From an uncultured Verrucomicrobiae bacterium (GTDB lineage Bacteria > Verrucomicrobiota > Verrucomicrobiia > Limisphaerales > JAFGQR01), in assembly GCA_963788655.1 (NCBI GenBank), contig CAWBHS010000001.1:1-25002 (forward strand): 25,002 bases of DNA. Direction: 5' to 3'. Under the pieces are notes generated by a model. That model made no database searches and was not told the origin of the DNA. It saw only the letters and a list, made by a program, of their open reading frames with translations. Position numbers and translations under genes: made by a program. This document shows, in pieces, positions 2,660-22,045 of this stretch (positions are counted from its first letter, which is position 1; each line of letters starts with the position of its first letter).

Positions 2660-2695
2660 GTTGCGCTCCACCGTTCCATAACTGCACTTCCGATT

Positions 2696-5600
2696 TCAAA
2701 AGGCAAACTCCAGGCGCACCGCCACCGTCCGGCCGCGCGGCAACTCGGGCGTGAGATTGAGCGGATTCAACCGGTAATCCTGGTCGGTCACGTTGAGCAG
2801 GCCCACCAACACCTCGGCACGTCGCCGCGGAAAACGGTAGCCGGCCCACAAATGGCATTGCCAGAATTCATCGCCGGGCCGCGCGCCCTCGTAGCCGTCA
2901 TTGCGCTGCCGGTACCACCAACCTTCAGCCCGGCCAAAGAATCCACGTGGATCCTGATACAAAGCGAACAATTGGAGTTGGTGCAACCCGGACTCCTGGC
3001 GTTCGGGTTCAAAGCCAAACGGAAACCGCGCGTCGCTGGGAATTTGCTCGAAGAGGTCGTGCAATTCCGCCTGACTCAGCCGGTAGCGAAGTCCCAGGGA
3101 CCAGCCGGCGCCGATCAATTGGTTCGCGGTGAACGTCAACGTGCGTTCGGTGTAGTTCAATCGTTCCCGGGTGCCGGAGGCGTTGACCGTAAACGACGGC
3201 AGAAGGTCATAGACGCCGCGCGTCCGGTTGACATCGGAGTCCAACCATTCGCCGCTCAACGCCAGATAGGTTCCGCGCCCAATTCGTTGCTCGAGTGAGA
3301 AGCCCCACGTCTCGAAGCGGGCGCCCCCGTTGGCACCGGCCACGGCTTCGGGCAGGATACTCCGAAACGCCTGGTTGAACCCCGCCACCTGCGTCGGCTC
3401 CAACTGGAAGCTTTGGTCGAACGCCACGCCGTTCAGCGCCTGCGCATAACCCGCGCGGAGGGTCGTCGTCCGAAACGGCGTCCAGATGAACCCGCCTTTG
3501 GGCGACACCTGGTCCTTCGTTTCCTCGCCTCCGTTGATCGGGGCGTAACGGAAGTTCTCGGGCATTCGCAGCCAGTCATAATTCAGCCCGGCCACCAGCA
3601 GCAGCGGATCGGCAATTTGCCAGCGATAGTAACCATAGACATTTGCCCGCCGGAAATCCGGCGTCACGTTTTGCGCGTTGGTGGGAAACAATCCGGCCAG
3701 GAACGGATAGAGCGGTACGACCGGGTGCGCGTGTTGATTCTGCGTGGCGAACGCGCCGCTCTGATACCGTGCGCCCACCGTGACGCTGTGATTGGCCTGC
3801 TGCCAGATTTGCTGGAGTTCCGCGGTGTAGATTTCCGTGTTGCTTTGGTAACGCTGCTCGAGGGTAATCGGGAGTCCATCAGTGACCTTGCCATTGACGT
3901 CCTTGGCCAACAGATAGGTGCCTTGACGCGAATTGGTCACCTGCAATTCGTCCTTCAACCGGCCCGCCAAAACGAGCGTGTGGATGCCCGGAGCCCATTC
4001 GTGATGATAGCCCGCCAGCAAAAGGGGTTGTTGGTTTTCCTGGAACCGAAATCCCGGATTCGCCTGGTTCGTGTTCTCCGGATCATAAACCGGGGTCAAA
4101 TGCCCGCCGTCGGCATCGTAATAAATCGCCTGGAAATAGAGCGTATCCTGCGGGGTCAGTTGCTGCTTTGAATTGCAATCCCAGCGTGAGTTGCTCCAAG
4201 TCGTTGTTCACGCGCTGGCCATTGCGAGACTGGTAGAACGCCTCAAGCGCATATTCCGAATTACCCCACGTGCCGAACTGCGCGCCGGACTGCGTCCAGT
4301 CACCGCGGCTGAGATATTCGGTGGCCGACACCACGCCCAGCCGATTGCGCTCGAACAGCCGGCCATATTCGTTTTGTGACACGGTCTGCGACAGCGCGCC
4401 GGCGCCGACCGGAGCCAGGAGATTGCCCACCAGGTACTCGCTCAACCACGGCGTCTCGTAGCGAAGATTGATCTGCCGGGGATCCCGCAGCGCATTGTAA
4501 CTGTTGGCCAGAAACAGGTGCGCCGAGTAATTGGCATAATCGTAATTCACCGCGCGGGCCGCTTCGCGCAGACTCACGTCGGTCATGCCGGCGTCACGAT
4601 AAACGCTGGCCAGATTGGCGCCGCGTACGGCCCGGTCCTGATCGAGCAGAAGCTGCGAGCGATAGACCCCACGATTACCAACCAGTTCCTGCGAATGCTC
4701 CAGGTCGCGCACGGCTTGATTGATCCGGTTGTGCTCCTGGTTCAACAGCGCGGAATACAACCACGCGGTCGGATCAGCCGGGTCCAGTTCCTGGCCGCGT
4801 CGCAGTTCTTTGGCGGTCTGGGCATCCAGACCTTGCTGATCAAAAGCCTTTCCCAGATAGCTGCGCAGGACCGACCGTTGCGGTTCCAGCGTGACGGCGG
4901 TCTGCAAATCGGCCAATCCCCCTGCCCCATCGCCGCGGTGAATGCGGCACAGGCCGCGTCCCAGCCACGCATTGCCCAAGGCGCCGTTCAAAGCGATGGC
5001 CCGATCGAACGCGGCGATGGCTTCGCCATAACGATTCTCCGCCGCCAGCAAGAAACCTTTCAACGCGAAGGCCTGGGCGTTGCGCGGCGACAATTCCAGG
5101 CTTCGCTCGACGGCCTTCCGCGCCGCCTTCGTATGACCAAAGCTGAACTCCAATTCCGCCAAACGCGCCTGGGCAAAACCGAAGCGCGGCGCACGCGCGA
5201 CTGCTTGACGAGCCGCTTCGAGCGCCGGCTCCAATCGCGCTTGCGCCTGCTGGTAATAGGACTCGGCGAGCAACTCGGTAGCGGTAGGAGTTGAAGGCTG
5301 AGCGCTCAGGTTTGAGGGAAATGGTCGCCGCTTGACCGCGGCGATCACCTTCCGCAACGCCACCGCCAACCACGCTGTCCGCTGACTTCCGACCTCTCCA
5401 CTCTGGCCATTGGCGGCCGGCTCCAACAGGTTCTCCGCCGGTTCGACTTGCCCCACGGTCAGTAACAGCGCCGCCAGGTAAACCCGTTCCGCATTCGACG
5501 CGGGGGCGCGGCCAGCGGGATATTGCTCGAGGGCGGCCAATAAATCCCCCGCCCGATAAGCCGCCAGCGAGCCAGCCAGCGCCGCCGGTTCGCCACCCGG

Positions 5601-6225
5601 CCAAACCAGTTCATCCGGATCCAGGATGCCCGGATAGGTACAAGACCCATTGGATGACATTCACCGCTTCGAGCCGGGGAACCTTGAACGGGATGCGTCC
5701 CGGTGCCGCCACCGCCGCTTCGCCGCTCGTGATGGAAACTGCTCCCCAATTGTTCGTGACCATGGCCTCACCGTCGATGAGGTCGAGCCGCATCGTATCA
5801 TTGGCATCGACGCTCACCGTGAATTCCGTTCCCAGCGTCAGTGCAAACGCGGTTCCTGAGTGAACTGGAAACTCGCCCCGCCGGTCACGGTGAAAGAGCT
5901 CCAGCAGCCCGCGAAACAGGTGGAACCCACTGCGGCGCGGGGCGGCTGGCGGCATCTGGAGGTGAGTGTAGTCGTCCAACCGCATCAGGCTCCGGTCCGA
6001 GAGCCGCAGGGTGGCGCGACTGTGCGCCAGAGTGCGGAGATGGTCGCCGGGCAGGAGCGTTTGGTTGGTGTGCGCCGGGGTCCAGTTCAGCACCGGGCCA
6101 TGAGCCACCTGCACGGTCCCTTCCAATTCCACCACGACGGGCCCCGGCGGTTCGGCAGCCAGCGCCGCGGTGGCCGCCAGCCAAAGCCCTGGTACCGCCG
6201 CGGCTCTGAACAGCCAGCGCCCCAT
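2696..6225 (-). CDS. FecR-domain / TPR / outer-membrane beta-barrel (TonB-dependent-receptor-like) protein, ~1175 aa, split by two frameshifts
   Basis: Three track ORFs join in order. 5611-6285: signal peptide and FecR domain (GDHLRT..SRATLRLSD.S, GTEF, LIDGEA). 4083-5660: TPR helices (FGFAQARLA, LELSPRNAQA, LNGALGNAWLGRG, LDPADPTAWLY). 2696-4099: amphipathic beta-strands ending RLEFAF, a C-terminal Phe OMP signature. Removing one extra G at ~5637 gives QWVLYYPGILD; removing one extra T at ~4168 gives LQFKQQLTPQDTLYF. Start uncertain (ATG 6225, GTG 6267 or GTG 6285). Confidence 0.88.
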
Positions 6226-6281: not shown

Positions 6282-6307
6282 ACACGTTGTAAATCGCCGA
6301 CTTTTTA
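6282..6307 (-). promoter_or_regulatory. Candidate ECF-type promoter TAAAAA-N15-CGTGT for the receptor-kinase operon
   Basis: The minus strand reads TAAAAA (6307-6302), GTCGGCGATTTACAA, CGTGT (6286-6282). Same elements and spacing as the sites at 6338 and 19677. Confidence 0.6.
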
Positions 6308-6337
6308 CTTTACACCCATTATTTTTGAAAATAATAT

Positions 6338-6363
6338 TAAAAATTCGGACTGATGCTCCGTGT
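6338..6363 (+). promoter_or_regulatory. Candidate ECF-type promoter TAAAAA-N15-CGTGT for the secreted-protein operon
   Basis: TAAAAA (6338-6343), TTCGGACTGATGCTC, CGTGT (6359-6363), 45 nt upstream of ATG 6409, in the AT-rich divergent intergenic region. Confidence 0.6.
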
Positions 6364-6408
6364 TCAGGGATGCTGATATTGCATTAATCCTAAACGAGAC
6401 AATCAGTT

Positions 6409-9400
6409 ATGAAACCAACAAACCGCATCGCATCTGCAATTCTCAATTCATTGTTGCCCACGGGACGGAAGGACTCATGGATCACCCGCGGTCTAACAAA
6501 AGTTCTACGCCCCCTAACCACCCCGCTTAGCTTGCTAACTGCCGGCCAACTCACGCTCTGTCTCTTCGCTGGTTCACCTGCCACCGTCGAAGCAGCCGAT
6601 CTTTCGTTGGCAGAAGCATTGGAGGATGCCAACCTCGCCTGGACCACCGGGGGCCAAGTTCCATGGTATGGCCAACAGATTGTCAGTCACGATGGAGCCG
6701 ATGCCGCCCAAAGTGGGATCATTGCTGATGCGCATGAATCCTGGCTGCAAACCACGGTCGTCGGACCGGGGACCTTGGAGTTCTGGTGGCAGGTGTCGTC
6801 GGAGCAGGATTTCGACTGGCTCCGCTTTCACATCGACGACGTGTTGAAGGAGCAAATCTCCGGCGAAGTGGATTGGCAACAACAGCAATTCGCCATTCCG
6901 GAAGGGAGTCACACGCTGGAATGGCGATATGTTAAGGACCCAGCGGATAGCGCCGGCCAGAACCGAGGATGGCTGGACCAAGTTTCCTTCGTGGCCGCCA
7001 CCGGCGGCCCGATGATCGCAACCCAACCCGCCAGTCAGACAGTTTGGGAGGGAGCCAACGTGTCGTTCACTGTCACCGCCCTCGGCAGTCCGCCCATGAG
7101 CTATCAATGGTTCGTTAACGGAACGCCCGTCCCCAGTGCCACAAACCTCACCCTGGCCCTAGCCACTATTCTCCCGGCCAACGCAGGTAGCTATCGCGTC
7201 GAGGTCAGCAATGATGCCGGCACCGTCACCAGCAGCCCGGCAGTTCTGACTCTCGGGAATAACGCCCCAGCGAACCAGATTCTGCTCTATGTAGATAGCC
7301 CGGTCCCTAGCCCTTTTGAAATCGCTCTGCTCAACCTGGGCTTCGACTACCAGCGTTTCACGTCTGCATCCGAGTTCACTTCGGCACTGAACAACGCCAA
7401 TCGCGATACCGACCTCGTAATCGTCGATCAACCTGGTAACTTCTTTACGCCCACCAGCCTCGTCAGCTTCATCAACGGTAGAGGTCGTGCCCTGATCCAG
7501 GCCAACACTCTGGCCGGCAGTCCCGCCCTCGCCACCGCCCTTAAGGTCGCCGTGGACTGGCGCTCCAATACGCCAATTTCCGTTTACGAATGGGGTGGCT
7601 CTCCGCTTTTCGAGGGACTATCCGGTCCTTTGAATCGGACCGAAATCGGCCTCGATGAGGATACCCAGAGGCTTCAGGTCGTCCCCGGAGGTTACGCTGT
7701 CGCCGGATTCTCCGCGGCAACCACGCCTGGGGAGGCGGCCATCGTCGTTGGCAACAACGGGCGAACCATCGTCAACGGGTGGTGGTTAGCTGGAATCATC
7801 TCTGGAAACGACGCTGTCCGGCTCGCTGAAAACCAAATCCTGTTTCTCACCGGACCCGTCTCCGCCACCACCCCCATCATCCAAATTCAACCGCGCAGCC
7901 AGACACTGCTGCCGGGAGGCAGCGTGCATCTGGACGTGAGAGCATCTGGAGGCTTGCCGCTGAGTTACCAATGGTACAAGGACAGCGTTGAACTCCCTAA
8001 CGCCACCAGCGCCTCACTCGACATCAGCAACATCCAGGTCGAAAATGAAGGCAATTACACCGTCGTCGTCGCCAACAGCTACGGCTCCGTGACTAGCGAT
8101 CCGGCCAGCCTGTCACTCCTCATCAAGCCCACCGGCCAGATCGCAAGCATCTTGTTGTTTACGGACACGTTCCTGGGAGTTCCCAGTCCCTATGAGACTG
8201 CGCTTACCGAGATGGGCCTGAACTTTCAACGCTTCACTTCGGCGCCAGCTTTTGCGGCCGCGGTGAGCCAGGCGAATCACAACAACACCCTGCTCATCAT
8301 CGCGGCTATCGACAGCTTCTACGATTTTACCAGCACAGCAAACTTCATTAGTGCTGGGGGGCAGGCCATTGTTCAGGATCCTGGGCGCTGTTGTCGGATT
8401 CCAGCGGGCTCGCCAGCGCCCTTGACGTCACGGCCGTGCAGGATATCCGATTCGTCGAGCCGGTTTATGAATGGGGTGCCACGCCTTTCTTCAGGGACTT
8501 GCCGAGCCCTGTCAACTTGACCGACCGCTTCGGAGGGGATGGGCAACTTCTTCAACCGGCCCCGAACGCGGCAGCAGCGGCAGGATTTGTGGACGCACCA
8601 ACCCAAAATCAGGCGGCCCTTGTTGTAGGCAACAGCGGGCGCACCATCGTCAACGGATTCGCAATGGAAGAGATCACCTCCGCCGCCGAGGCCGTCCAGT
8701 TCGCCCGGAACCAAATCGAGTATTTTGTGCCACTAGCCCCGGAAATCGTAACCCAACCGGAAGATCAAGTCGTGGTCTTGGGCGGCACCGCGAATTTCAA
8801 TGTGGCGGTGGCCGGAGCTCAACCGTTGAATTACCAGTGGCGCAAAGACAATATTGATATCCCCGGCGCCGAGGGCAGCGCGTATTCCATCACCGGCGTT
8901 CAATCGAACCATTACGGCAATTACAGCGTGGTGGTAACCAATAGGTTTGGCGTGGTGACAAGCCGGCTGGCCAAGCTGGATTGGGGGCTCAAGCCTGAGA
9001 TCATTCAAGCTCCCTTGAGCCAATCCATCGTCGAGGGAGGGAACATCACTTTCAGTGTGGAAATAGTGGGGCATCCTGCACCTTTCACCTACCAATGGCG
9101 GCGCAGCTCCACCATCCTGACCAACATCGAGTCCGACGAACGCCACGCTTTCTTCACCTTGAATGATGTGGAATCGAATCAAGGCGGACTTTATCGCTTG
9201 GTGATTATCAACGCCGTTGTGCCCGTGGTAACCGGCTCGTCCCCCAATGCCACTTGGACGCTGACCGTTCTCCCCGACACCGATGGCGATGGCCTGCCCG
9301 ACGAATGGGAAGCGGAACATCTGGTGGATGATCCCAACGGCGATCCCGACAGGGATGGAATGACCAACCGCGAGGAATACGAGGCCGGGACCGATCCCAA

Positions 9401-9638
9401 CGAGCCGGACAGCACTTTGCGGATTGAACCCCTCGATCCGTTGGGCAGTGCCGCCATCGAGTTCCAGGCCATTTCGAACAAAACCTACACCGTGCAGTAC
9501 CTCGATGAGGTGGGCCGTGGCTCATGGTCAAGATTGGCCGATGTCGTGGCCCGAACGACCAACCGCGTGGAGGTGATTTACGACCCGAGGAACGCCGCGC
9601 GGCGCTACTACCGCGTGGTGACCCCCAGACAGGAATGA
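6409..9638 (+). CDS. Large secreted Ig-domain protein (~1076 aa) with a duplicated alpha/beta domain, DxDxDG Ca-binding motifs and the shared C-terminal domain; one frameshift
   Basis: ORFs 6409-8520 and 8391-9638 join via a single missing base at ~8377. Order: extended signal peptide; Trp-rich beta-sandwich (GPGTLEFWWQVSSE..DWLRF..HTLEWRYVKD); Ig I-set-like (QPASQTV..YQW..GSYRVEVSN); alpha/beta domain 1; Ig; alpha/beta domain 2; two Ig; DTDGDGLPDEWE / DPDRDGMTNREEYEAGTDPN; C-terminal domain ending RRYYRVVTP. Confidence 0.85.
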
Positions 9639-9649
9639 GGATATCCAGC

Positions 9650-9673
9650 GCCTGCCGCAAGGCAGGCCTCTTT
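9650..9673 (+). terminator. GNRA-loop hairpin between the first two operon genes (weak terminator or mRNA-stabilising stem)
   Basis: GCCTGCC-GCAA-GGCAGGC (9650-9667) followed by CTCTTT, 11 nt after the stop codon at 9638. Confidence 0.45.
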
Positions 9674-9695
9674 GGCAATCTATTGCAATGACATC

Positions 9696-12600
9696 ATGAA
9701 ACACTATCGTTCCGTCGCTCTGATCACCGTCGCGATTGCCGGGTCCGCGAGCGGCGCCCAATGGACTGTGTCCAATACCAACGACAGCGGAGCCGGTTCA
9801 TTGCGGCAAGCCATTATTGACGCCAACACGTCCTCCGGGTTGGACGAGATTCATTTTGCGATACCGGGTCCAGGACCGTTCACAATCCGGCCCACGTCCC
9901 AACTTCCGACGATCACCGGCTCGGTAATCCTCGACGCCACCACGCAACCCGGATATGCCGGCCGACCGGTTGTTGAACTGAAGGGCAGTTTTGCCGGGGT
10001 CCAAGTACATGGACTACGTCTGGGAAGCTACAGATTCCACCATTCGCGGATTGGCCATCACCGGTTTTTCCCGCACGGGGATCTGGCTGGATGGCGGCAG
10101 CGGCAACGTCATTGCGGCCAACTTCATCGGTCTGGCTCCCGCCGGCACTTCCGCATCCGGCAACGCCACGGGGGGCATCTGGATCTGGAACTCGATCAAT
10201 AACCGGATTGGAGGCACCACCGCCGCAGCGCGCAATGTGATTTCAGGAAATTCCGGGCCCGGGGTCGAAATGGGCGGGATACCACGGGCACGCAGGTTGA
10301 AGGAAACTACATTGGCACCGATGCCACCGGTCTGTCGGCGATGAGCAATCAGTCAGGGGTGTTGATTATCAATGCGGGTGGCAATGTCGTTGGTGGAACC
10401 TCGACGGGAGCCGGTAATCTCATTTCGGGCAATTTCCTGGCGGGCGTGGAAGTCGATCAAAGCCTGGTGGAGAATATCATCGAAGGCAATTGGATTGGCA
10501 CCGACCTCACCGGCACCCAGGCATTGGGCAACGCCGGCGGCTTGTTGATCGATTTGAACGCGATGAGCACCCGGATCGGGGGTAACCAATACGGAGTCGC
10601 GGAACATCATTTCGGGCAACACGGTCAGTGGCATCATCATCCGGGGTGGCGCCATGAACACCAGGGTCGAAGGCAACTTTATCGGAACGGATATCACCGG
10701 CACCCATGCTCTCGGCAACCATTCCAGCGGCATTGTGATCTACGAAGGAGCCTCCGGCACGAGCATCGGCGGCACCGCACCCGGTAGCCGCAATGTGATT
10801 TCCGGCAACACCCTCTGGGCGGTGGAAATGGACAACAGCGAAACCCGCAACAATGTGGTCGAAGGCAACCACCTTGGGACGGACCTTACCGGCACGAAGG
10901 CTTTGGGCAATGACGGGGGCGTGCTGATCGATAATTTTGCCGCGGACAATCGTATCGGCGGCACCAACACCGCTGCTCGCAATGTGATTGCGGGTAATAC
11001 CATAGCCCCGGGAGTCAACCTCCGCGGCGGGGCTACCGGGCAATCTCGTTCAAGGTAATTTCATCGGCACCGATGTCACCGGCCACACCGCGCTGGGCAA
11101 CGGAAATGTGGGCGTGCTGATTGAGTCCTCCGGCAACGTCATCGGGCCCCTGAATCTCATCTCCGGCAATCAATCCGATGGCATTGAGTTGCATTCTGAG
11201 GCCAATAACAACTGGATCAAAGGCAACTTCATCGGCACCGACGCCACCGGCTTTGAATTCCTCGGCAACGACGGGGTGGGAGTGGTGCTGGATGTCGGTT
11301 CGTCCGCGAATCTCATTGGCGGTGTGGATCGGCGGACCGGAACATCATTGCCGGCAATAGAATTTCCGGAGTCAGCATCGAGTCCACCAACGCCACCGGC
11401 AACCGCGTCGAAGGCAACTACATCGGCACTGACATCACCGGCACCAACGCTTTGGGGAACGGTGAGAACGGTGTCTTCATCCGGCAAGCCAGGAGCAATG
11501 TGATTGGTGGTCCTTACCAGGCGCCCGCAACATCATCTCCGGCAATGGCCGCTTGGGCCGGCCCAACGACGGGCGCAGCGGTATTGAACTGGAGCGGCGA
11601 CCTGCCGGCAACCTGGTCGAGGGCAATTTCATCGGCACTGACGTTCCCGGCACCCTGCCACTCCCGAACCGCGAATACGGCGTCTTCATTCAAAGCTCAT
11701 CCAACAACACGGTGGGTGGTTCGAGCGCAGCGCAAGCCAACCTCATTTCCGGTAATCTGCTCGATGGCATTCTGATCGAGGCGGCCGACGCCGTCGGCAA
11801 TACTGTCAGTGTAATCTGATCGGCACCGACGCCGCTGGCACCAACACCTTGGGAATGGCGCCAATGGCATCCACATCAACGACGCGCCGAATACCTCGTC
11901 GTCAATCTGGGCGCGGGCCGCAATGTGATTTCGGCCAACGCCGAGGCGGGGCTGCTGCTCGAAGGCGCCAACGCTCAGGCCATCCGCGTTCGGAACAACT
12001 TCATTGGCACCGACGTGGCCGGCACGGCTCCATTGGGCAATGGCGGCGATGGCGTTCACTTGCGCAGCGGGGCGTCGCACAACACGATTGGGTTTACGAT
12101 GTCGCCCGGCCGCAACGTCATCTCGGCCAACCTCCAGCACGGCGTCCACCTCGAGCACGAAGGCACGGTCAGCAATCTCGTGGAAAGCAATTTCATTGGC
12201 ACCGACCTCACCGGCACCAATGCCCTGGGCAACCACGGCAGCGGCGTGCGCACCAGCCGCGGCGCCAGCCAGAACACCATGGGCGGCAGCAGCGGCGGCA
12301 ATACCATCGCCTTCAATCAGGAGCACGGGGTGCATCTGCGCGATGGCACGCAGAACTTGATTCGTAACAACGCCATCTTTGCCAATGGCGGATTGGGGAT
12401 CAACCTGGGGTTGGATGACGAGGTTACCCCCAACGACGTTGGCGACGCGGACACTGGCGCCAACGAGTTGCAGAACGTGCCGGTGCTCCACAGCGCCGTG
12501 GCCGACACGAACGGCACCGTGCTGCTCACCGGCACCTTGGCGAGCTTGCCGATTACTTCGTTTACGCTGGAGTTTTTCGTGAATGACACGTGCGACCCTT

Positions 12601-13001
12601 CGGGCTTCGGCGAAGGCGCGGCTACGTTGGGACTGACCAACGTGATGACCGATAGTGGCGGCGCGGCGGATTTTACTCTGACGTTTCCCACTGGGGTGGC
12701 GATCGGGCAGTACGTGACGGCGACCGCAACCGATCCGTTCCTGAACACGTCCGAATTCTCCGCGTGCGCACCAGTTGTGCCGGCGGACGGCGCCCCGCGG
12801 TTGGCTATTGCAAACTCGGAAACCGCGCTGATCATTTCGTGGGCGGAAGCCACCGGGTATCAGCTTTATTGGGCGACGAATCTGAGCCAGCCAATCCTTT
12901 GGCATGTCGCGACCAACACGGTACAATCGCTCAATGGCACCAACGCGGTATCCATCGAATCCAAGGCCGGTAACAGGTTCTTCCGGCTGTGCAATCCATA
13001 A
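9696..13001 (+). CDS. Secreted right-handed parallel beta-helix repeat protein (~1100 aa) with the shared C-terminal domain; about nine frameshifts
   Basis: Signal peptide MKHYRSVALITVAIAGSASGA, then VSNTNDSGAGSLRQAIIDAN. About 12 repeats of ~60 aa (N[VI]ISGN...GN[FY]IGTD.TG..ALGN) continue across track ORFs 9672, 9991, 10341, 10654, 11108, 11452, 11553 and 11925. These are followed by a TPNDVGDADTGANELQN..FTLEFF..TATATD..NTSEFS module and a C-terminal domain ending NRFFRLCNP. Frame switches at ~10023, 10277, 10584, 11039, 11330, 11513, 11811, 11852 and 11895. Confidence 0.85.
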
Positions 13002-13009
13002 ACTGAAAC

Positions 13010-16000
13010 ATGGCAACAACCCACCCCCATCAGCAAGTTCGTGGTGTGCGCCGGGGCCGCGATTGCTTGAGATGCGCCGGGATTGGCGGAGTTCTTTTAG
13101 CGGTCACTTTGTTCACCAGAGTATCATGGGGAGCAGAAAGCGGGACCACGCAACTCACGGTTGTCAATCCCACGGCGATCAGCATTCCGACGAATAACGC
13201 CGGCCCAGCCACTCCGTATCCGTCCACGATCAGCGTTACCGGCCTGACGGGTTTCATCAGCCACGTTTCGGTGACGATCAGCAACCTGAGCCACACCTGG
13301 CCCAGCGACGTGGACGTGTTGTTGACCTCGCCCGCCGGGCAAGGGGTAATACTCCTGTCCGACGCCGGTTCGGATCATTCGATTACCTACGTCACGCTGA
13401 CTTTCGACGACGGTGCTCCGAAGACGCTACCCAAATCCAGCCGCATTGTTTCCGGGCGCTATAAGCCGACCAATCATTCCGGCGATGATTTCTTTCCGGC
13501 TCCGGCTCCGGACGGTCCTTATGGCGCGTCGCTGTCCGTATTCAACGCTTACGATCCCGACGGCCTATGGCGGCTTTACGTGGTGGATTCCGAACCGGGT
13601 GATGGCGGAGCCATTGCTGACGGATGGAGCCTGACGATCACCGTGACCAATCAGCAGGCGCTTCCGTCAATTAACATTAGCGATCCGGTGCTCGAGGAGG
13701 GGCAAAGCGGCATTACCAATGCAGTGTTTATCGTCAGCCTTTCCTCGACCAGCAGCCTGCCGGTGGCAGTGGATTATGAAACCGCCGATGGCACGGCGAC
13801 CGCCAATACGGATTATGTTCCACAAACCGGAACAATCCTTTTTCCGCCCGGAAGCCTCGAACAAACCGCCCTTGTGCCCGTGATCGGCGACATTCTTTTC
13901 GAGCCGCACGAGACGTTCTTCCTGCTGCTCAGTCAACCGACGAACGCCATCCTTGCCGACGCCATCGGAATGGCGACCATCCGCAACGACGATTCGCTGC
14001 CGTTGGCCGATGCGTTTGCCGAACGCCCGGTCGTGAGCGGCATCTTGCTCACGATGATCGGCTTCAATACCGGCGCCTCCCGCGAACCGGGCGAACCGGA
14101 GCACGCCGGGAATCCCGGGGGCGCGTCCGTTTGGTGGTCCTGGCGGGCGCCGGCGGCGGGTGGGGTGAATGTCTTCTTTGGAGCCAGCACCTTCAATCCC
14201 CTGCTGGCCGTCTATACCGGTGAGTCTTTGTCCTATCTGGCCCTGGTGGCGGACAATCGCGCCAGCGCTGGCTTCACCGACCAGTTCCACTTCAATGCCG
14301 TAAGCAACATGACATACATCTTTGCCGTGGATGGTGTGGATGGCCAAACCGGGGACTTCATCCTTCAACTCGGGTTGCGGCCCGGTCAGTTCTACATGTC
14401 CAGCGAAGCGGGCGCGGAAGTTTGGGTGCCGAACGGACCGGTCCTGGCGCTGGCCGAGCTGGACGACGTCATTTATCTGGGCGGCGAGTTCACCCATCTG
14501 AGTCCGAACGTGGGGAAAGGTGAGTTGTGGGAGACGGTTTCGGGCCTCCCGGTGCCGGGTTTTCCCCGAGCCAACGGGCCGATCTACACGGCCGTTCCGG
14601 ACGGACACGGTGGCTGGTTCCTGGGTGGCGAATTTACCCAACTCGGGGAGACCGGTCGGACCAACCTGGCGCATCTCCTCCCCGGCAACGTTGTGGATCC
14701 CAATTGGCCGCCGTGGACGGACGGTTTTGTTTTCGAACTGGTCCTGGCGAGCGACCGGCTCTACGTCGGCGGATCGTTCACCAATTTCTCCGGCCTGGCG
14801 CGGTGGAACCTGGCCGCTGTGGACCCGGGCACGGGCACGGTCACCGATTGGCAACCCGTTGTCCGGCACGCGCTGGAACCGGAGGTTGGAGCTGCGGTCC
14901 GCGCCATCGCCGTTGCCGGCAACACGGTTTTTGTTGGAGGAACGTTCACGGAGGTCGGCCGACAACCACGATCCAGTCTCGCCGCCTTGGATGCTTCGAC
15001 GGGCCAGGCTACGGCATGGAACCCGGCTCCGGCAGCGGCTGAAGGCGTCGTGATTCATGCTTTGGTGGTCCATGACGAAACCGTCTTTGTCGGCGGCAAA
15101 TTCACCTATATCGGAGGACAGCCACGGAACAACTTGGCGGCGCTGGATATCCAATCCGGCCTTGCCACACCATGGGCCGCTTCGGCGGACGCTCCTGTGC
15201 TCACCCTGCAATCCTCGTGCAATACGTTGTATTCGGTGGGGAATTTGCCTCCGTGGATGGCCAACCGCGCAACCGGCTTGCCGCCGCGTGGCTGAGTGAT
15301 GGCAGCGTAACGCCGTGGAATCCGAATATCACTGGTGCACAGGTCTCGCGCATCGTTCTTGATCAAGACCTGCTTTATGCCGGCGGCGCCTTCTCTGAAG
15401 TGGCTGGAGCGCCGCGTGATAATGTTGCGGCGGTGGACACAGCCACAGCCCTGCCCACCCCGTGGAATCCCGGAGCCGGTGTCGCCGTCGAAAGCCTGGC
15501 CGTCGCGGCCGGGAACGTTTTTGTGGGAAGCGTCCATGACCGTGGCGGTGTGGTCCGGCATAATCTGGCCGCCATCGATGCTCGCACCGGACAACCGGTG
15601 GCGGATTGGAACCCGGACCCCGACGGACGGGTGACCGCGTTGTCCCTTGCCGGCGGCAACCTCTACTTCGGCGGCGACTTCACCACGGTCGGCGGCCAGT
15701 CCCGCGAACGGCTCGCCGCGGTGCGCACCGCGACGGGTGAATTGACCGATTGGAATCCCGGCGCCAACGCCACCCCGTTGGCCATTGTCGCCGGAACGGT
15801 CTTCGTGACCGTGGGGGGCCGGTTCACCTTTATTGGCGGCTCCGGCAGCGCCTACGTGGCGACGCTGGACGCAACGACCGGAGCGCCGGCGCGTTGGTCG
15901 CCGACCCCCAACGGTGAAGTCCACTCCCTCCACCTCGAAATCGGTTCTTTGTATCTCGCCGGTCAATTCACCCAAGTCAACGGTTACAGTCGTCCGGGAT

Positions 16001-18626
16001 TTGCCGCGGTGGATTTGCACAATGAACAAGTGTTGTCATGGGACCCGCAGATTCAGGGCGGCGCCGCGGTGGGCGAAGCGGTCCGGGTGTTTGCGTCGCC
16101 GGCGTACCTGGCGGGCTCATTTACCACCGTGCGAGGTGAACCGCGCCTGAACGTGGCTGCCGTGGACAAAGCCACGGGAGTTGTCCTCCCGTGGAATCCA
16201 GTGGTGGAACCGGCGGGCCGTGGCGTGACGACTCTGGCCCAGTCGAAAGCCTTCTTCTATGTCGGCGGAAACTTCGATCATGTCGGCGGCCAACCGCGCA
16301 ACGGCCTCGCCGCCATTGAAGATCTCTCCGGAGCGACGACCCCGTGGAATCCGCAGCTCAAGTCGCCGGTGCCTGGCACGGTGGTTTCCGCCCTGAACGC
16401 GAGCGTCGAGCGGGTGGAGGTGGGCGGCGCCTTCACCACCATCGGCGGACGGTTTTCTCCCAATTTCGCCATCTTTCCGCCGGAAGGAGTGCCGCGAATC
16501 GGGCGCGAGCCCCGCGACCAGATTCTGCCCGTGGGAGATACGATCCAACTGCAAGCTGAGGTGAGTGGCCAGCAACCGCTCGTCTTTCAGTGGCAGTTCA
16601 ATGGCACCAACCTTCCCCATGCGGTCACTGACCGACTGGAAATTCCGAACGCCCAGGTCGAACACTCGGGGGAATACACGCTGATCATTGCCAATGGACT
16701 GGGCCTCACGCGGACGCGGGTCGCGACGGTCGTGGTTTACACGCCGATCGCCATCACCGCCGATCCGATCAGTCAGGTGGTCTCGCCCAACGCCACGGTT
16801 CATCTCGCCGTCTCCGCCACTGGCGATCCCGCGCCAACCTACCAATGGCGCCTCAATGGCGTGAACATTCCCGGAGCCGTTTATCCCACCTACACCATCA
16901 CCAATGCCCAGCCGGCCGATGGTGGCAGCTATGATGTCGTGGTCGTCAATATCGGCGGCGCCGTGGCCAGCGCGGTCGCCACCGTGATCATCACCAGCCC
17001 GACCCTCGATCTCGAAGATGATTTCACCAATCGCGTGACCTTTGTTGACGCGACCGGATTGGGAGCAGCACCAACGGCTTGGCCTCCCAGGAAGTCGGCG
17101 AACCCAATCATGTCGGCAAGTTCGGCGGCAAATCCGTGTGGCTCGGTTGGATCGCGCCCGCCAACGGCATCGCCACGTTCAGCACCAGGGGCAGCACGTT
17201 CGATACGTTGCTGGCCGTTTACACCGGCACCAATTTGGACGCGTTGACCGTCGAAACCGGCGATGAAGACCGCGGCGGTTTCTTGACCAGCGAGGCTTCC
17301 TTCAACGCCGCGGCCGGCACCCATTATGCCATCGCCATCGACGGGTTTGCCGGCGCTTCGGGCCACATCGTGCTCAGTTGGAGCCTGGACACCAATGCCA
17401 TGCCCTTCCCGCACATCATCAGCGAGCCGCTCAGCCAAACCCACTTTCGCGGCGACACCGTTACGTTCGCGGTGGTCGTCGATAATCCGGCAGTGACTTA
17501 CCGATGGTATTTCGGTTGTGATTCGATATCCGGGGCGACCAACGCTCAGTACACCATCGCCAACGTTCACCCAGAGAATGTAGGCGGCTATCACGTCGTG
17601 GTGCAAAACGCTTCTTCGTACGTGGCCGAGAGTTTGTAGCGTTCCTGGAAATTGGTCCCGAGCCCAAAGCCTTGTCCCTTGACAAACCCGAAGACTTGCT
17701 GTTCGGGCTTGCCCCAGGCGGCGCGGGCGGCCAGCGCCGGGCCGGCGCGTCGCTGTTCACTGCCGGTGCAGCCGGCGGCTTTATCTCGGTGGCCATGGGC
17801 ATCACCGATTCGCAACTGCTGGACAACACCGACGCGGTCACCCAACCCGGCGAGCCCATTCGCTGCGGCGTGCTGGGCGGCGCCTCGTTGTGCCTGGTGA
17901 TCCAACCGCAGGAAAGCGGCGCGGTGGAAGTGGACACCTTGGGCAGCGCCATCGATACGGTGCTGGCCGTCTATCACTGGACCAATCTGTTCGCTTTGTA
18001 CTCGGGCCTGCTCGACTGCGATGACAACAGCGCCGACGGCCTTCGCAGCCGGTTGGTGTTCAACGCCAAGCTCTGGAGTATTACCTGGTGGTCGTGGACG
18101 GCGTGAACGGCGCGCGCGGCCCGATTGAGGTGAACTGGCACTGTGGGCGAGGCCCCGAGCCGATCCGGGACCGCCGCACGCTAATGCAATCGGATGGCCG
18201 GCATCTTGTTGGTGGCCCGGTCACCAATGCGGTGCCCGCGGTGACCTACCAATGGCTGGTAAACGGAACCGCGATTGTGGGGGCGACCAACGAGACCTGG
18301 GCCGTGCCGGGGCTGACCGGCACGGCCGGCACCTACAGTTTTCGCGCAGACAACTTCGCGGGAAGTTTGGAGGGCCCGTCGCGGTGCTGCTGGCCTTGCG
18401 TTGCGAATTGGACCAGGAAGCGGGCGTCGTGCGGGTGCGCTGGCCCGACGGGATCACTGGGCCGGCGGTGCTGGAGGGTTCAACCGATTTGGACGCGTGG
18501 GAGACAATGCAGGAAATCACGCCGATGGAGGCTGCCGGCATCCAGGAGGTCCCGATTGCGGACGAACGTCTGCAGTTCTTCCGCGTGCGTCCGTTGCCGG
18601 AAGCAACCAGCGTTCAACCCAAATGA
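13010..18626 (+). CDS. Giant secreted modular protein (~1870 aa): proprotein-convertase P-domain-like, Calx-beta, three PPC-like domains, 14-blade beta-propeller, Ig domains, shared C-terminal domain; at least five frameshifts
   Basis: ORFs 13010, 15172, 17079, 17672, 18088 and 18252 join through single missing bases at ~15232, 17062, 17633, 18069 and 18376. Motifs: PYPSTISV..LSHTWPSDVDVLLTSPAG..GLWRLYVVD (P-domain-like); VAVDYETADGTATANTDY..ETFFLLLSQPTNA..TIRNDD (Calx-beta); EPGEPEHAG..SVWWSWRAP..LLAVYTG..AVDG (PPC-like, x3); [YF][VL]GG.FT..G..R..LAA.D..WNP (x14); QWQFNG and YQWRLNG (Ig); ends LQFFRVRP. Confidence 0.85.
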
Positions 18627-18729
18627 ACGATCCGGAACGGGATCGTGATGAATGCGATGGAAATCCGAAACCCGAGGTCCGAAATGGACCTTGCGCACGC
18701 CTTACATCCTTTGGAGTCTCAATACCGGA

Positions 18730-18911
18730 TGGTAGGGCGAGACTCCGTCGAGCCCTGATTCTTCCGCATCGTTTTCGAACCATTGGAGGCCGGAACCGCG
18801 GTCGGCCACCGGCAGTCTCATGGCCGAGCGCCAGTCATTTCCCATCGATCGCTTTTGGGCTTTTGAACGCACTCCGGGGAAATCAGGGCTCGACGGAGTC
18901 TCGCCCTACCA
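18730..18911. repeat. REPIN/MITE-like element: perfect 31-bp inverted repeats around a 120-bp spacer (family B)
   Basis: 18730-18760 (TGGTAGGGCGAGACTCCGTCGAGCCCTGATT) is the exact reverse complement of 18881-18911. GTAG lies near the outer ends. Located between convergent stop codons (18626 and 18927). Confidence 0.9.
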
Positions 18912-18926
18912 GAGCGCCCGGCCTCG

Positions 18927-19610
18927 CTAGAACAATTCTGCTTTCAAACTCCGAACTTCCTGACGCAGGAGATGGGTGATTTTGTATTTGGCGAAATAAA
19001 CCTGGCTGAGTTTGACGCGCAGACTTTGAACGACCCGCTGGGCCGGCCACTGTTGCAACACGTGCAGTTGGAACATTTGATAATGGGCCGGGTCGGCGTG
19101 ACGCTTCACTCGCTCAAGCGCGATGGTCATCAGGTTCTGCTCCCAATCGGCTTCCCAGATGGCGTCGAGATCGAGACTGGCCGGATCCGGCAGCCGATCC
19201 GTGGTGGAGGTGTGGGCAGTCTCCCCCGGCGCCCGCAGTCGGTGCGACATGCCGGGCGGGCGTTTGCGGAGTTCATCGGTGATGCGCCAGCGGGCCAGCT
19301 TAAGCAACCAGCCCTTGAACGAACCGTGTTGGGCGCCCACCTCGAAGTTCCCAATGTTGCGCGCCACGGACACCAGAGTTTCCTGCAGGACGTCTTCCGC
19401 CTCTGCGTCGGTCAGGCCGGCTTTCCGGGCGGTATTGACAATGAGCCGGCCGTACAATTGGGAGAATTCGGCCCAACTGGCGCCGTCCTCCCAATTCTTC
19501 AGCCGCTGCAACAGGCTTGCCCGGGTGGGCAACCGTTCAAACGCCGGTGAAGACTGAACCGGCGGTGCGGACGCCCGCGCATCCTCCTGCTCTTCGATTG
19601 AGTTGTTCAT
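18927..19610 (-). CDS. ECF (group 4) sigma-70 family RNA polymerase sigma factor
   Basis: Region 2: PTRASLLQRLK..SWAEFSQLYGRLI..EAEDVLQET..GSFKGWLLKLARWRITDELRKR. Region 4-like C-terminus: ALERVK..YQMFQL..PAQRVVQSL..SQVYFAKYKI. The N-terminal TRxSLLxRL motif is typical of Planctomycete/Verrucomicrobia ECFs. ATG 19610 preferred; the track starts at TTG 19658. Confidence 0.93.
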   Translation of the reverse strand: MNNSIEEQEDARASAPPVQSSPAFERLPTRASLLQRLKNWEDGASWAEFSQLYGRLIVNTARKAGLTDAEAEDVLQETLVSVARNIGNFEVGAQHGSFKGWLLKLARWRITDELRKRPPGMSHRLRAPGETAHTSTTDRLPDPASLDLDAIWEADWEQNLMTIALERVKRHADPAHYQMFQLHVLQQWPAQRVVQSLRVKLSQVYFAKYKITHLLRQEVRSLKAELF

Positions 19611-19676
19611 ACGCGCATCGTTCGTTGATTCAGCCACGTTTCCCGTCCATTCGCTCAAAAGTTTTCGATATATTTT

Positions 19677-19702
19677 TAAAAAGTAAAGCTTTTCTTCCGT
19701 GT
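19677..19702 (+). promoter_or_regulatory. Candidate ECF-type promoter TAAAAA-N15-CGTGT upstream of the triple-domain protein, divergent from the sigma gene
   Basis: TAAAAA (19677-19682), GTAAAGCTTTTCTTC, CGTGT (19698-19702). With the 6337-6363 site it shares the longer pattern TTAAAAA-N13-TCCGTGT. Confidence 0.6.
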
Positions 19703-19801
19703 ATTCCTTAGCCGACGGTGTCGTGCCGGCGGCTCACAGCGAACAACCATCAACCTAACCAACTCAGGCGCAACGGCGCCGGGAAGAAAAAAGGATAAAT
19801 T

Positions 19802-21820
19802 ATGAAAAATCGAATGCTGGCTTCCGCGCAAAAACATCGCGCTGGTGGCCTTCAACTGATTGTGGCCACTGGATTTCTCTGGTTCGCCATGTTGTCTCCA
19901 GGGTGGGCGAAGGAACCTCACCATCCGAAGATTGTGCCCCCCGGCAAGAAGGTGCATGGCAAGACCTACGACCAGTGGGCCGCCCAGTGGTGGCAGGATC
20001 TGTTTGCGATTCCCGTGGTGAATGGCGATCACCCGTTTTTCTCCGGGGGCACATTCGGCGGGGACCATAAAGTAGTGTTTCTGACGGGTGTGGGCGGCCC
20101 CACCACCGTCGAGATCAATCTGCCCAAAGACACGGCGATCTTCTTCCCGGTGCTCAACTCCGAGTGCTCGGTGCTGGAGGACCCGCCGTTCCATGGGGAT
20201 GACGAAGCCTCACTACGAGCCTGCGCGAACAGCTACCTCGATCATGCGGTCAGCCTCTTCGCCGAAATTGATGGGGTTCCCGTCGAGCACCTCGAAGCCT
20301 ATCGCAGCGGATCGCCCTGGTTCGAGTTCGGGCCGTTGCCGGAGGGCAACCTCTTCGGGGTGCCGGCGGGCACCACGTCCCTCTCGGTGGAGGCGGGCAT
20401 CTATCTGTTCCTGGAACCGTTGCACGACGGAACGCACACGATCCATTTCGGCGGAAGCACTTCGGGGTCGGCGTCCGACTTCGCGATCGACACCACGTAT
20501 GTCGTTCACGTTGGGAAAAAGGGAAAGGGCCTGGTCGTGCCGCCCGACAAAAAAGTGGAAGGCAAGACCTACGGCGACTGGGCGAATGCCTGGTGGCAAT
20601 GGGTGATGGGCATTCCGGCGGACCGCAACCCGTTGACCGATGAGACGGGCGAGTTTTGCGGGGAAGACCAACACGGTCCGGTGTGGTTTCTGGCCGGCAC
20701 GTTTGGGAACTCGGTGGAACGTACCTGCCAGATGCCCAAGGGCAAACGCATCTTCATGCCGGTGTTCAACTGGATCTTTGGCGCCGGCGTGTTCGACTGT
20801 GATCCGACGGTTCCCGGCGTGCCGTGCGATGTGGCCGGGTTGCAACAATTGGCGGCGGAACAAACCGAAAAGGCCGAGGTGCTCGACGTGACCATTGACG
20901 GGATGTCAGTCCCGAACGTGCGGGACTACCGGGCCAGTTCGCCGAAGCCCTTTGCTCTCAAATATCCGGACAACTCCGTCACCGGCGTGCCGAAGGGCAA
21001 GTATTCTCCGCAGGTGACCGACGGTTACTGGTTGATGCTCGAACCGCTGCCCGAAGGGGAACACGAAATCCGGATCCACGTCAGCGCCCCGGACACCGCG
21101 TTCGGTCTGATCGAGTTCGACATCATCACTCATCTTACGGTGGGCAAACCCAAGAAGGCCCACGTGGTCCCGCCGAAGGCCAAGTACCGCGGGCTGAGCT
21201 ATGGCGAATGGTCGGCCGAGTGGTGGAAATGGTGCTTCAGCCTGCCCGCGGACAGACACCCGTTGTTCGACACCGCCGATTCCAGCGCCGGCCAGTCGGG
21301 GAACGTCTGGTTCCTCGGCGGCACCTTCACGCTGATCGAAGATGAGGACGGTTCGGCGTCCGGGGTGGTGACGCGCGATTGCACCGTTCCGAAAGGTACG
21401 GCGTTGTTCTTCCCGATCCTGAATACCGAATGTTCCACCGTGGAAGGCAATGGCGATACCGAAGCAGAACTCCGTGACTGCGCGGCCTTTTATGGCAGCG
21501 CGGCCATGAATCCCGATTCCAATCTGCAATGCACCATTGATGGCATGCCCGTGAAGGATCTGGATCACTATCATGTGCAGTCGCCGGCATTTATGTACGG
21601 ACCGCTGCCGGAGGACAACATCCTGCAGGCCCTGGGCTTGGACGTGCCGGCGGGCACGACGTCGTTATCGGTGAGCGACGGTATCGATGTCATGCTCGAA
21701 CCTTCGTCCGCTGGTCGCCATACCATTCACTTCTCGGGCAGCGGCATCTATACCGAGGCGGAACACGGCTTTGATTACGTGTTCCATCTGGACATCACCT
21801 ACCACGTGACCGTCGAGTAA
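19802..21820 (+). CDS. Secreted hypothetical protein, 672 aa, with three tandem copies of a ~200-aa Trp/Cys-containing domain
   Basis: Signal peptide ending PGWA. Repeats start at ~19928, 20531 and 21161 and share VPP..K..G.[TS]Y..W...WW, V[VW]FL.G, [IL]F.P[VI].N, IDG..V, Y...SP.F, [AD]G....LEP...G.H.I and D[TI].. . AGGA lies upstream of the ATG. No frameshifts. Confidence 0.9.
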   Translation: MKNRMLASAQKHRAGGLQLIVATGFLWFAMLSPGWAKEPHHPKIVPPGKKVHGKTYDQWAAQWWQDLFAIPVVNGDHPFFSGGTFGGDHKVVFLTGVGGPTTVEINLPKDTAIFFPVLNSECSVLEDPPFHGDDEASLRACANSYLDHAVSLFAEIDGVPVEHLEAYRSGSPWFEFGPLPEGNLFGVPAGTTSLSVEAGIYLFLEPLHDGTHTIHFGGSTSGSASDFAIDTTYVVHVGKKGKGLVVPPDKKVEGKTYGDWANAWWQWVMGIPADRNPLTDETGEFCGEDQHGPVWFLAGTFGNSVERTCQMPKGKRIFMPVFNWIFGAGVFDCDPTVPGVPCDVAGLQQLAAEQTEKAEVLDVTIDGMSVPNVRDYRASSPKPFALKYPDNSVTGVPKGKYSPQVTDGYWLMLEPLPEGEHEIRIHVSAPDTAFGLIEFDIITHLTVGKPKKAHVVPPKAKYRGLSYGEWSAEWWKWCFSLPADRHPLFDTADSSAGQSGNVWFLGGTFTLIEDEDGSASGVVTRDCTVPKGTALFFPILNTECSTVEGNGDTEAELRDCAAFYGSAAMNPDSNLQCTIDGMPVKDLDHYHVQSPAFMYGPLPEDNILQALGLDVPAGTTSLSVSDGIDVMLEPSSAGRHTIHFSGSGIYTEAEHGFDYVFHLDITYHVTVE

Positions 21821-21937: not shown

Positions 21938-21994
21938 GGTCGGACGGTGGGTTACGCTCAGTGTGAAATATCTCGGTTAGACTCCATCGAACAA

Positions 21995-22023
21995 AACCCG
22001 CTGCCGGAATCCGGCAGCGGGTT
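21995..22023. other. Perfect 14-bp inverted repeat (strong hairpin) just upstream of the propeller gene
   Basis: AACCCGCTGCCGGA-A-TCCGGCAGCGGGTT. Followed by a T-rich tract only on the minus strand. Ends 22 nt before ATG 22046. Confidence 0.7.
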
Positions 22024-22045
22024 CAAGGAATGCAAGGGACAAGCC

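Follow-up and report, generated by a model that had tools for sequence, protein, structure and literature searches.

Introduction

Promoters that are read by extracytoplasmic function (ECF) sigma factors generally consist of an AAC-containing -35 element, a spacer of 16–17 nucleotides (nt) and a -10 element with CGT; it is common, although not universal, for such a target promoter to lie upstream of the sigma gene itself. Here we describe a stretch of 25,002 bases, hereafter the window, which constitutes the whole of one contig (C1) in the 8.96-Mb, 115-contig assembly of a soil Verrucomicrobium (59.6% G+C, 86% complete). The window encodes an ECF-type sigma factor and contains three copies of a bipartite motif, TAAAAA-N15-CGTGT, which an initial annotation of the DNA took to be the target promoter of that sigma factor and to define its regulon. 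From the analyses reported below we conclude, with a probability of about 0.78, that the three sites (W1, W2 and W3) are ECF-type promoters read by the sigma factor of the window. The three units that they face – a sensor-kinase operon, a block of secreted-protein genes, and a triple-repeat gene followed by a propeller gene – very probably form a small and purely local regulon whose members would be switched together.

The closest described systems are the following. Hanks kinases directly phosphorylate ECF43 sigma factors (PMC13147305), and kinase-linked ECF groups are usually without anti-sigma factors (PMC7826278). In the ECF43 pairs EcfP/PknT of Vibrio parahaemolyticus and EcfK/PknS of Xanthomonas citri the partner is a Hanks-type Ser/Thr kinase that sits in the membrane and has its sensor part outside the cytoplasm; EcfK has phosphosites in the sigma2-sigma4 linker as well, and ECF43 proteins have an uncharged sigma-2.2 region with a switch threonine instead of the acidic DxxD (PMC13147305). 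The group ECF267 (Sorangium, Chondromyces; Casas-Pastor et al. 2021) is characterized by a FecR-like tetratricopeptide repeat (TPR) protein and protein kinases encoded near the sigma factor, the FecR-TPR protein being discussed as a possible anti-sigma factor (PMC7826278). In Sinorhizobium meliloti an outer-membrane barrel, NsrA, signals to inner-membrane CHASE2 receptors, the cyclases CyaD1, CyaD2 and CyaK (PMC13001267), with cyclic AMP and the CRP-type regulator Clr as the response, and clusters of CHASE2, FecR-domain and TPR genes are described from the Campylobacterota (PMC9239204). Finally, the FecA-FecR-FecI systems (ECF242/243) join an outer-membrane barrel and a periplasmic FecR domain to an ECF sigma output whose regulon includes the sensor operon. 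The locus in the window has a barrel, a FecR domain, a CHASE2 kinase and an ECF sigma factor on one contig, and no anti-sigma factor is encoded in that contig.

Results

Three exact copies of a bipartite motif

The motif TAAAAA-N15-CGTGT has exactly three matches in the window, at 6307-6282 (minus strand, W1), 6338-6363 (plus strand, W2) and 19677-19702 (plus strand, W3), the same coordinates and strands as originally reported. Dinucleotide shuffling of the window gives an expectation of 0.02 matches, and three matches were reached in none of 100 shuffles. All three copies are intergenic, occupying the contig's two AT-rich intergenic regions, and each is oriented toward a start codon 45–99 nt away, as the initial annotation had it when it placed a start within ~100 nt: measured from the last T of CGTGT, the distance is 56 nt for W1 (to ATG 6225 of the FecR-domain gene), 45 nt for W2 (to ATG 6409) and 99 nt for W3 (to ATG 19802). 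ATG 6225 was taken as the start of the FecR-domain gene on the basis of the signal-peptide-like N-terminus; the first possible start of this open reading frame (ORF), GTG 6285, overlaps the motif.

Both plus-strand copies (6338 and 19677) can be extended to TTAAAAA-N13-TCCGTGT, as had been noted. The boundaries originally drawn around the -35 element need to be adjusted: the A-rich element is there, but T-N-AAA-A, separated from CGTG by 16 nt, describes it better than TAAAAA. Allowing up to two mismatches added a single site, at 20515 inside the gene for a 672-amino-acid (aa) protein, and the resulting four sites compare with 3.65 expected, which is the level of chance.

With its spacer of 15 the exact motif has six matches in the assembly as a whole; for the remaining 17 spacers between 8 and 25 the number ranges from zero to four (mean ~0.8). 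The three exact copies outside the window all fall within ORFs (542, 631 and 503 aa); the intergenic, gene-facing form of the exact motif is confined to contig C1 within the assembly. A genome-wide scan had been suggested as a check on the motif, and in this respect the outcome favors it; the less favorable part of the outcome is the weak fit of W1 to the family model described below.

It is extremely improbable that the sites are a functionless product of chance in AT-rich intergenic DNA or of local duplication. The intergenic regions that hold them are indeed poor in G+C (44–47% against ~60%), W1 and W2 share an 11-nt inverted repeat that could be a duplication, and the exact copies elsewhere in the genome look like chance. 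Against this stand the 100 shuffles and the counts at the other 17 spacers in 8.96 Mb, which uphold the original contention that AT-richness does not explain CGTGT at a fixed distance. Furthermore, W3 lies 13 kb from W1 and W2 and has nothing in common with them beyond the motif, and a matrix derived from foreign DNA picks W3 and W2 among the best sites of the genome.

A family signal upstream of sigma homologues in other organisms

The sigma factor has distant relatives only. Identity reaches 50% at best across 60 related genomes, and in the only genome of the same genus it is at most 44%; among 5.8 billion proteins the nearest relatives are 60–62% identical, with at most 56% identity on metagenome contigs and 50% on genome contigs. 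Conservation upstream of orthologues, proposed as a further check, could not be followed in a close orthologue; upstream of more distant sigma homologues, however, a bipartite signal is present.

Loci of sigma homologues were taken from related genomes (19 loci), metagenome contigs (80) and genome contigs of GTDB (21), these last nearly all from Verrucomicrobiota. The exact TAAAAA-type/CGTGT pattern was absent from the 19 related-genome loci, and the family signal emerged only with a relaxed -35 element. Upstream regions of sufficient length numbered 84, many of them from mutually related loci. In these the pattern T[C/G/T]AAA[A/G]-N-CGTG was found on the sigma strand 21 times at a spacer of 17 nt (N17), four times at N16 and four times at N15, and not once at N12-14 or N18-20. 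On the opposite strand of the same regions it was found seven times at N16 and four times at N17: these are divergent promoters, with -35 elements back to back with that of the sigma-facing promoter. Relaxing the -10 element to CG[AT][AG] in 72 dereplicated regions gave 17, 10 and 5 matches at N17, N16 and N15 on the sigma strand, where the other spacers from 10 to 23 gave 0–4, and 6, 11 and 5 matches at N17, N16 and N15 on the opposite strand. An assumption-free count of 4-mer/gap/4-mer pairs was led by fragments of the motif, present in 8 of 72 regions where shuffles gave at most 5–6.

Typical foreign sites read TTTTTCAAAAAC-N-CCGTGTACCTG or CTTGAAAGAA-N-CGTGT. Read as TTAAAA-N16-CGTGT, the window sites are of the same class, and W3 (TATTTTTAAAAAG...CGTGTATTC) is almost identical to the divergent promoter of two of the foreign loci, L022 and L026 (TATTTTAAAAAAG...CGTGTATAG). 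The 21 GTDB loci served as a hold-out set: the strict pattern was found in only one of them, L102, and L103 has GTTAGAA..CGTGTA. A group-specific bipartite promoter with CGT in the -10 element and a rigid spacer is a hallmark of ECF sigma factors, and it is seen here both in the foreign loci and in the window.

Locus L026, whose sigma factor is 55% identical to that of the window, is of particular interest. Its divergent TTAAAA-N16-CGTGT faces an operon that ends with a 268-aa single-domain homologue of the W3 target, and the identities between this protein and the three repeats in the 672-aa sequence are 45, 39 and 33% (best E 8e-53); one motif target is therefore conserved between the window and L026. 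Where flanks suffice, opposite-strand copies face large secreted-protein genes with NHL/PKD/HYR (L026), FG-GAP/ASPIC (L030) or HYR (L057) domains, or a hydrolase gene (L081).

Genome scan with matrices from foreign sites

A two-block weight matrix was built from 29 dereplicated foreign sites, and both strands of the 8.96-Mb assembly were scanned with it. W3 (score 29.3) ranked first and W2 (27.1) second in the entire genome. Spacer 16 is enriched: ten sites reach at least 22 and six at least 24, whereas any other spacer between 8 and 26 has 0–5 and 0–1 such sites, respectively. Two stricter matrices, one from the foreign sites without T at the second hexamer position (25 sites) and one from the AAAA-type sites among those (13 sites), both placed W3 first, with W2 at rank 6 or 5.

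Covariation of the sigma-4 helix with the -35 element

The best conserved part of the sigma family is the C-terminal helix of sigma-4, which in the window reads VYFAKYK (there is no Pfam Sigma70_r4 match to the protein). The sequence of this helix varies together with the -35 hexamer. For sigma factors with VYFAKYK all 12 hexamers end in A (TCAAAA, TGAAAA or TTAAAA; eight dereplicated loci with sites), for those with VY[L/V][A/I]K[H/N]R the hexamer is TGAAAG in all 12 cases (nine loci), and for those with [V/I]YMAKHR the hexamer is TTAAAA at spacer 15 in two loci; many of the loci are related, and these counts are not independent events. The window, with a VYFAKYK sigma factor and TTAAAA sites, falls into the matching class. 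Within the same genome, a paralogue on contig C72 has the helix VYLAKHR and TGAAAG-N16-CGTAT upstream, as the covariation rule predicts, and a paralogue on C73 has a sigma-4 without a match to the helix pattern.

The C72 site is one of a second class of promoters built in the same way, TTGAAAGA...CCGTATATAA (TTGAAAGA-N-CCGTA[T/C/G]ATAA), which is represented at five more places in the genome (Table 1). This class is probably a separate regulon of the C72 paralogue. One of its sites precedes an ORF that, to the eye, resembles an AraC-type regulator.

The family motif, the scan with foreign matrices and the covariation between sigma-4 and the -35 element together support the original proposal that the motif is the promoter of the local ECF sigma factor. 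That a different sigma factor – the housekeeping one, or one of ~36 other sigma-70-family proteins – reads W1–W3 is unlikely. The genome offers many candidates (37 Sigma70_r2 matches in all), and at 86% completeness the assembly could be missing a second sigma factor of the same subtype; besides, the local sigma gene is itself without the motif, and a sigma-70-like TTTACA-17-TAATAT adjoins W2. Near W3, however, there is no sigma-70-like match, and the few high-scoring sites genome-wide do not fit a general promoter type. The motif class adjoins homologues of the local sigma factor in other organisms, and its -35 subtype fits the sigma-4 subtype of the local protein, which is the sole VYFAKYK sigma found in six-frame translations of the assembly; the paralogues on C72, with its TGAAAG/CGTAT-type promoter, and on C73, with a sigma-4 outside the helix pattern, differ from it.

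A number of observations weigh against the local sigma factor as the reader of all three sites, or against the regulon built on it. W1 scores only 7.9–10.1 with the family matrix and is absent from the matches of at least 12 returned by the stricter matrices, because its hexamer begins with G, whereas that of every foreign site begins with T, and it is not preceded by a T-tract; what supports W1 is its exact 11-base identity with W2 and W3 and five extra bases in common with W2, not the family model. No copy of the motif is present on the sigma gene's own strand in 19611-19801. Autoregulation is thus not seen in the window, although among 72 dereplicated relatives the strict pattern lies before the sigma gene in 19 and the relaxed pattern in up to 32; with no motif at the sigma gene, feedback, if any, would therefore run via the sensor and kinase genes and not via the sigma factor. 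Seven of the GTDB loci (L108, L109, L113, L115, L117, L120 and L121) carry TTGAAAGA..N..CGAT; CGTGT therefore marks only part of the family, and the -10 element varies across the wider family. The relatedness of many foreign loci means that their counts overstate independence, and the pattern by which sites were selected was written after the window had been seen, which somewhat favors the window – a bias that the stricter matrices limit and do not remove. The sigma-70-like match that adjoins W2 is one of two overlapping matches in a region where 0.2 are expected. There is no motif copy upstream of the paralogous FecR-TPR-barrel-CHASE2 operons on C2, C88, C87 and C27, nor upstream of the kinases on C3, C72 and C73; operons of this type thus do not carry the motif as a rule. 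The kinase gene is 16 kb away from the sigma gene, and the two are linked by neighborhood and analogy only. Lastly, with many broken frames among the target genes, the unit may be decaying.

The contention that the motif defines the regulon of the sigma factor is supported for the three local promoters, with no such promoter elsewhere in the genome and none at the sigma gene.

Sequences around the three probable promoters

The predicted transcription starts of W1–W3 (Table 1) follow from the usual geometry of ECF promoters. The -35 elements of W1 and W2 form an 11-nt inverted repeat (TAAAAA[G/T]TCGG; CCGACTTTTTA/TAAAAATTCGG; 6297-6348), and between the two promoters is a perfect palindrome that reads as two back-to-back -35-like elements (TTTTTGAAAA and TTTTCAAAAA) without a -10 element at the right spacing. 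This palindrome may be what is left of the back-to-back arrangement found in relatives, or a site for a regulator. The spacer of W3 is filled by an imperfect palindrome, AAGTAAAGCT/AGCTTTTCTT, at 19681-19696.

Such symmetry raises the question of whether the motif is instead the operator of a DNA-binding regulator, CGTGT and the A-tract being two half-sites. We consider this very unlikely. The inverted repeat of W1 and W2, the perfect palindrome between them and the imperfect one in the W3 spacer are what an operator might offer, but the two halves of the motif are unlike each other, and they keep one orientation to the downstream gene at all three sites and in the foreign loci on either strand. 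A spacing tolerance of 1–2 bases, a CGT-containing -10 element and a position 45–140 nt before the coding sequence make up the layout of an ECF promoter, for which the motifs of other ECF groups quoted in PMC7826278 offer a comparison, and the sigma factor is the only regulator gene in the contig.

The sigma-70-like match that ends at W2 may provide basal transcription of the secreted-protein block that is independent of the local sigma factor. No Rfam model matched at gathering score anywhere in the window, and a search for sequencing runs that contain this DNA listed none, RNA runs included.

The sigma factor and the three units

Table 1. Positions of the probable promoters, genes and associated sequence features; entries with a contig prefix lie outside the window.
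Feature	Position	Strand	Remarks
Promoter W1	6282..6308	-	-35 GTAAAAA 6308-6302, -10 CGTGT 6286-6282; faces FecR/TPR/barrel/CHASE2-kinase operon; predicted start ~6275
Promoter W2	6337..6363	+	-35 TTAAAA(A) 6337-6343, 16-nt spacer, -10 CGTGT 6359-6363; faces 12-kb secreted-protein block; predicted start ~6370
Promoter W3	19676..19702	+	-35 TTAAAA(A) 19676-19682, -10 CGTGT 19698-19702; faces 672-aa triple-repeat gene, divergent from sigma gene; predicted start ~19709
ECF-type sigma factor, 227 aa from ATG 19610	18927..19610	-	only regulator gene of contig (Pfam scan); divergent from W3; proposed reader of the motif
CHASE2 receptor Ser/Thr kinase, 711 aa	536..2671	-	last gene of W1 unit; Pfam CHASE2 4.3e-30, Pkinase 1.3e-23
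Outer-membrane beta-barrel	2696..4099	-	third sensor piece; Pfam TonB_dep_Rec_b-barrel 4e-13
TPR protein	4083..5660	-	second sensor piece; Pfam TPR families; overlaps FecR ORF by 50 nt in another frame
FecR-domain protein, 204 aa	5611..6225	-	signal-peptide-like N-terminus; Pfam FecR PF04773 3.7e-9, residues 62-153, sole match; first piece of NsrA-like sensor
Large secreted-protein genes, ~12 kb	6409..18648	+	proposed W2 unit; Ig, TSP3, beta-helix, Calx-beta, P-domain, DUF5122 propeller (Pfam)
672-aa exported protein	19802..21820	+	first gene of W3 unit; three repeats of a ~220-aa uncharacterised domain
822-aa Rax2/DUF5122 beta-propeller protein	21947..24415	+	Pfam Rax2 5.1e-34; 126-nt gap to 672-aa gene, no motif of its own
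Sigma-70-like match TTTACA-17-TAATAT	6309..6337	+	9 of 12 positions; ends at -35 of W2
Perfect 8-nt palindrome ATTATTTT-TG-AAAATAAT	6318..6335		midway between W1 and W2
Second-class promoter sites	C62:108726(+), C72:363840(-), C89:15394(-), C109:37067(+), C60:330739(+), C12:3241(+)		matrix scan

The sigma factor has the sigma-2 domain expected of its kind (Pfam Sigma70_r2 PF04542, 7.6e-10, 38.9 bits with a cut-off of 24) and matches the NCBIfam model for ECF sigma factors, TIGR02937 (sigma70-ECF), at 47.3 bits (cut-off 42.9), residues 46-216 aligning with positions 3-162 of the 165 in the model. The acidic residues of sigma-2.2 are kept, the family consensus being DAEAQDVVQET and the window sequence DAEAEDVLQET. 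In an alignment of 26 family members a threonine, Thr134, is invariant at the end of the sigma2-sigma4 linker (stretch T-S-T-T-D-R-L-P-D-P-A-S-L).

The genes of the W1 unit – FecR, TPR, barrel and CHASE2 kinase – are four consecutive minus-strand ORFs (536-6225), in the same order as in paralogues of the same genome. Two of these paralogues, C88:73705-77277 (1,190 aa) and C27:88353-92030 (1,225 aa), have the FecR, TPR and barrel portions in one ORF. So do L063 and L072 among the foreign loci, where the fused protein, of ~1,200 aa, adjoins the sigma factor; its central part is matched by the TPR protein of the window at 57% identity. Although flanks are short, 26 of 99 foreign loci have a homologue of the kinase beside the sigma homologue, and 10 have a FecR-domain homologue. 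The kinase comes directly after the sigma factor in L057, L062, L064 and L088 and is adjacent also in L016 and L025; in L025 a barrel, a CHASE2 kinase and a sigma factor stand in a row.

Downstream of W2, the region 6409-18648 contains no further copy of the motif. Its reading frames are broken at 10 or more places, and 2696-6225 is likewise split into three overlapping ORFs; the genes for the kinase, the sigma factor and the 672-aa and 822-aa proteins are intact. The breaks may be due either to assembly error or to gene decay.

The first gene of the W3 unit encodes a protein that has no Pfam or NCBIfam match, and for which a protein atlas gave only unnamed clusters. At E <= 1e-10 it has 354 single-domain relatives, and no Pfam family is assigned to any of them. 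A structural model of repeat 3 is of high confidence (predicted local distance difference test score, pLDDT, 95.6), and its matches in the PDB are only weak ones to Ig sandwiches: the best fold match is the cysteine-protease inhibitor EhICP2 (Z 5.1, root-mean-square deviation 6.1 over 103 residues), and Foldseek TM-scores are 0.2–0.4. The propeller gene that follows is possibly co-transcribed from W3.

Discussion

In the mechanism that we propose, domain 4 of the sigma factor would bind the A-rich -35 element T-N-AAA-A (TTAAAA or GTAAAA) and domain 2 the -10 element CGTGT 16 nt further, with transcription expected to start a few bases downstream. The sigma factor would in this way control the sensor/kinase operon and the secreted proteins, and not its own gene. 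The signal may enter through the FecR-TPR-barrel sensor and pass to the CHASE2 kinase, which most likely activates the sigma factor by phosphorylation, possibly at Thr134, by analogy with the kinase-linked ECF sigma factors; Thr134 is a candidate phosphosite for the associated kinases.

A wider picture can be offered tentatively. The locus might represent a relay that is undescribed as a whole, leading from an NsrA-like FecR-TPR-barrel protein to a CHASE2 Hanks kinase and on, by phosphorylation of the linker, to an ECF sigma factor without an anti-sigma factor. In such a relay the sensor/kinase operon, and not the sigma gene, would be under control of the sigma factor, and a helix code (F..YK for AAAA, L..HR for AAAG, M..HR for TTAAAA or TTAGAA) would prevent cross-talk among the relays of one genome.

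Neither the sigma family nor its motif was found described in the available portion of the ECF classification text (PMC7826278) or in full-text literature searches, as judged by listings and abstracts, and no kinase-linked group with members in the Verrucomicrobia is named in the available supplement of PMC7826278. CGTGT was seen once in that supplement, as GCGTGTC in the actinobacterial group ECF51, with an unrelated -35 element, GCAACCG. New, within the literature searched, are a sigma family of the Verrucomicrobiota, its A-tract/CGTGT consensus, and the covariation of sigma-4 with the -35 element. The family is hereby given a concrete target sequence and a three-unit regulon, both of which can be tested, and a proposed kinase-type relay at the cell surface becomes linked to output genes that encode large secreted or surface proteins. 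Moreover, the covariation of three residues of the sigma-4 helix with one base of the -35 element would provide ready-made orthogonal sets of sigma factors and promoters.

How does the locus compare with the systems described? By gene content the sensor half resembles that of NsrA and the CHASE2 cyclases (PMC13001267), and also the CHASE2/FecR-domain/TPR clusters of Campylobacterota (PMC9239204). The neighborhood is that of NsrA and CHASE2, but the cyclase output is absent: the receptor carries a kinase domain, and in place of cyclic AMP and Clr there is an ECF sigma factor with a defined promoter.

The likeness to ECF43 lies in the absence of an anti-sigma factor and in a membrane-bound Hanks-type Ser/Thr kinase whose sensor part is extracytoplasmic, and the invariant Thr134 of the window family is in the linker, where EcfK, too, has phosphosites. 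However, the window family has retained the acidic residues of sigma-2.2, which ECF43 proteins have replaced, and it is therefore not a member of ECF43. In the available account ECF43 is, furthermore, restricted to Proteobacteria, with a kinase that has TPRs (PMC7826278), whereas here the organism is a Verrucomicrobium and the kinase has CHASE2; for ECF43, the available portions of PMC13147305 and PMC7826278 give no target motif for comparison. ECF267, compared here by description only, shares the FecR-like TPR protein and the protein kinases near the sigma factor, but it, too, is restricted to Proteobacteria and its target motif is not conserved (PMC7826278). The FecR-TPR protein of ECF267 may be an anti-sigma factor; its counterpart here opens with a signal-peptide-like sequence and leads on into a barrel of the outer membrane.

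With FecA-FecR-FecI the locus has in common an outer-membrane barrel, a periplasmic FecR domain, an ECF sigma factor as output, and a regulon that would include the sensor operon. It departs from that system in that the FecR protein has neither a cytoplasmic anti-sigma domain nor a membrane anchor, forming instead the N-terminal part of an outer-membrane protein, and in that a kinase stands in place of the anti-sigma factor.

The promoters themselves are like ECF promoters in general: they are bipartite, with a rigid spacer of 16–17 nt, CGT in the -10 element and a short distance to the gene, and in many relatives they lie before the sigma gene. ECF promoters that are specific to one group and serve a small local regulon are textbook matter, and the locus does not change the view of how ECF sigma factors function. 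What sets the promoters of this family apart is the -35 element, a T-flanked A-tract (TTTTCAAAAAC, TTGAAAGAA, here TTAAAAA) without AAC, combined with CGTGT as the -10 element.

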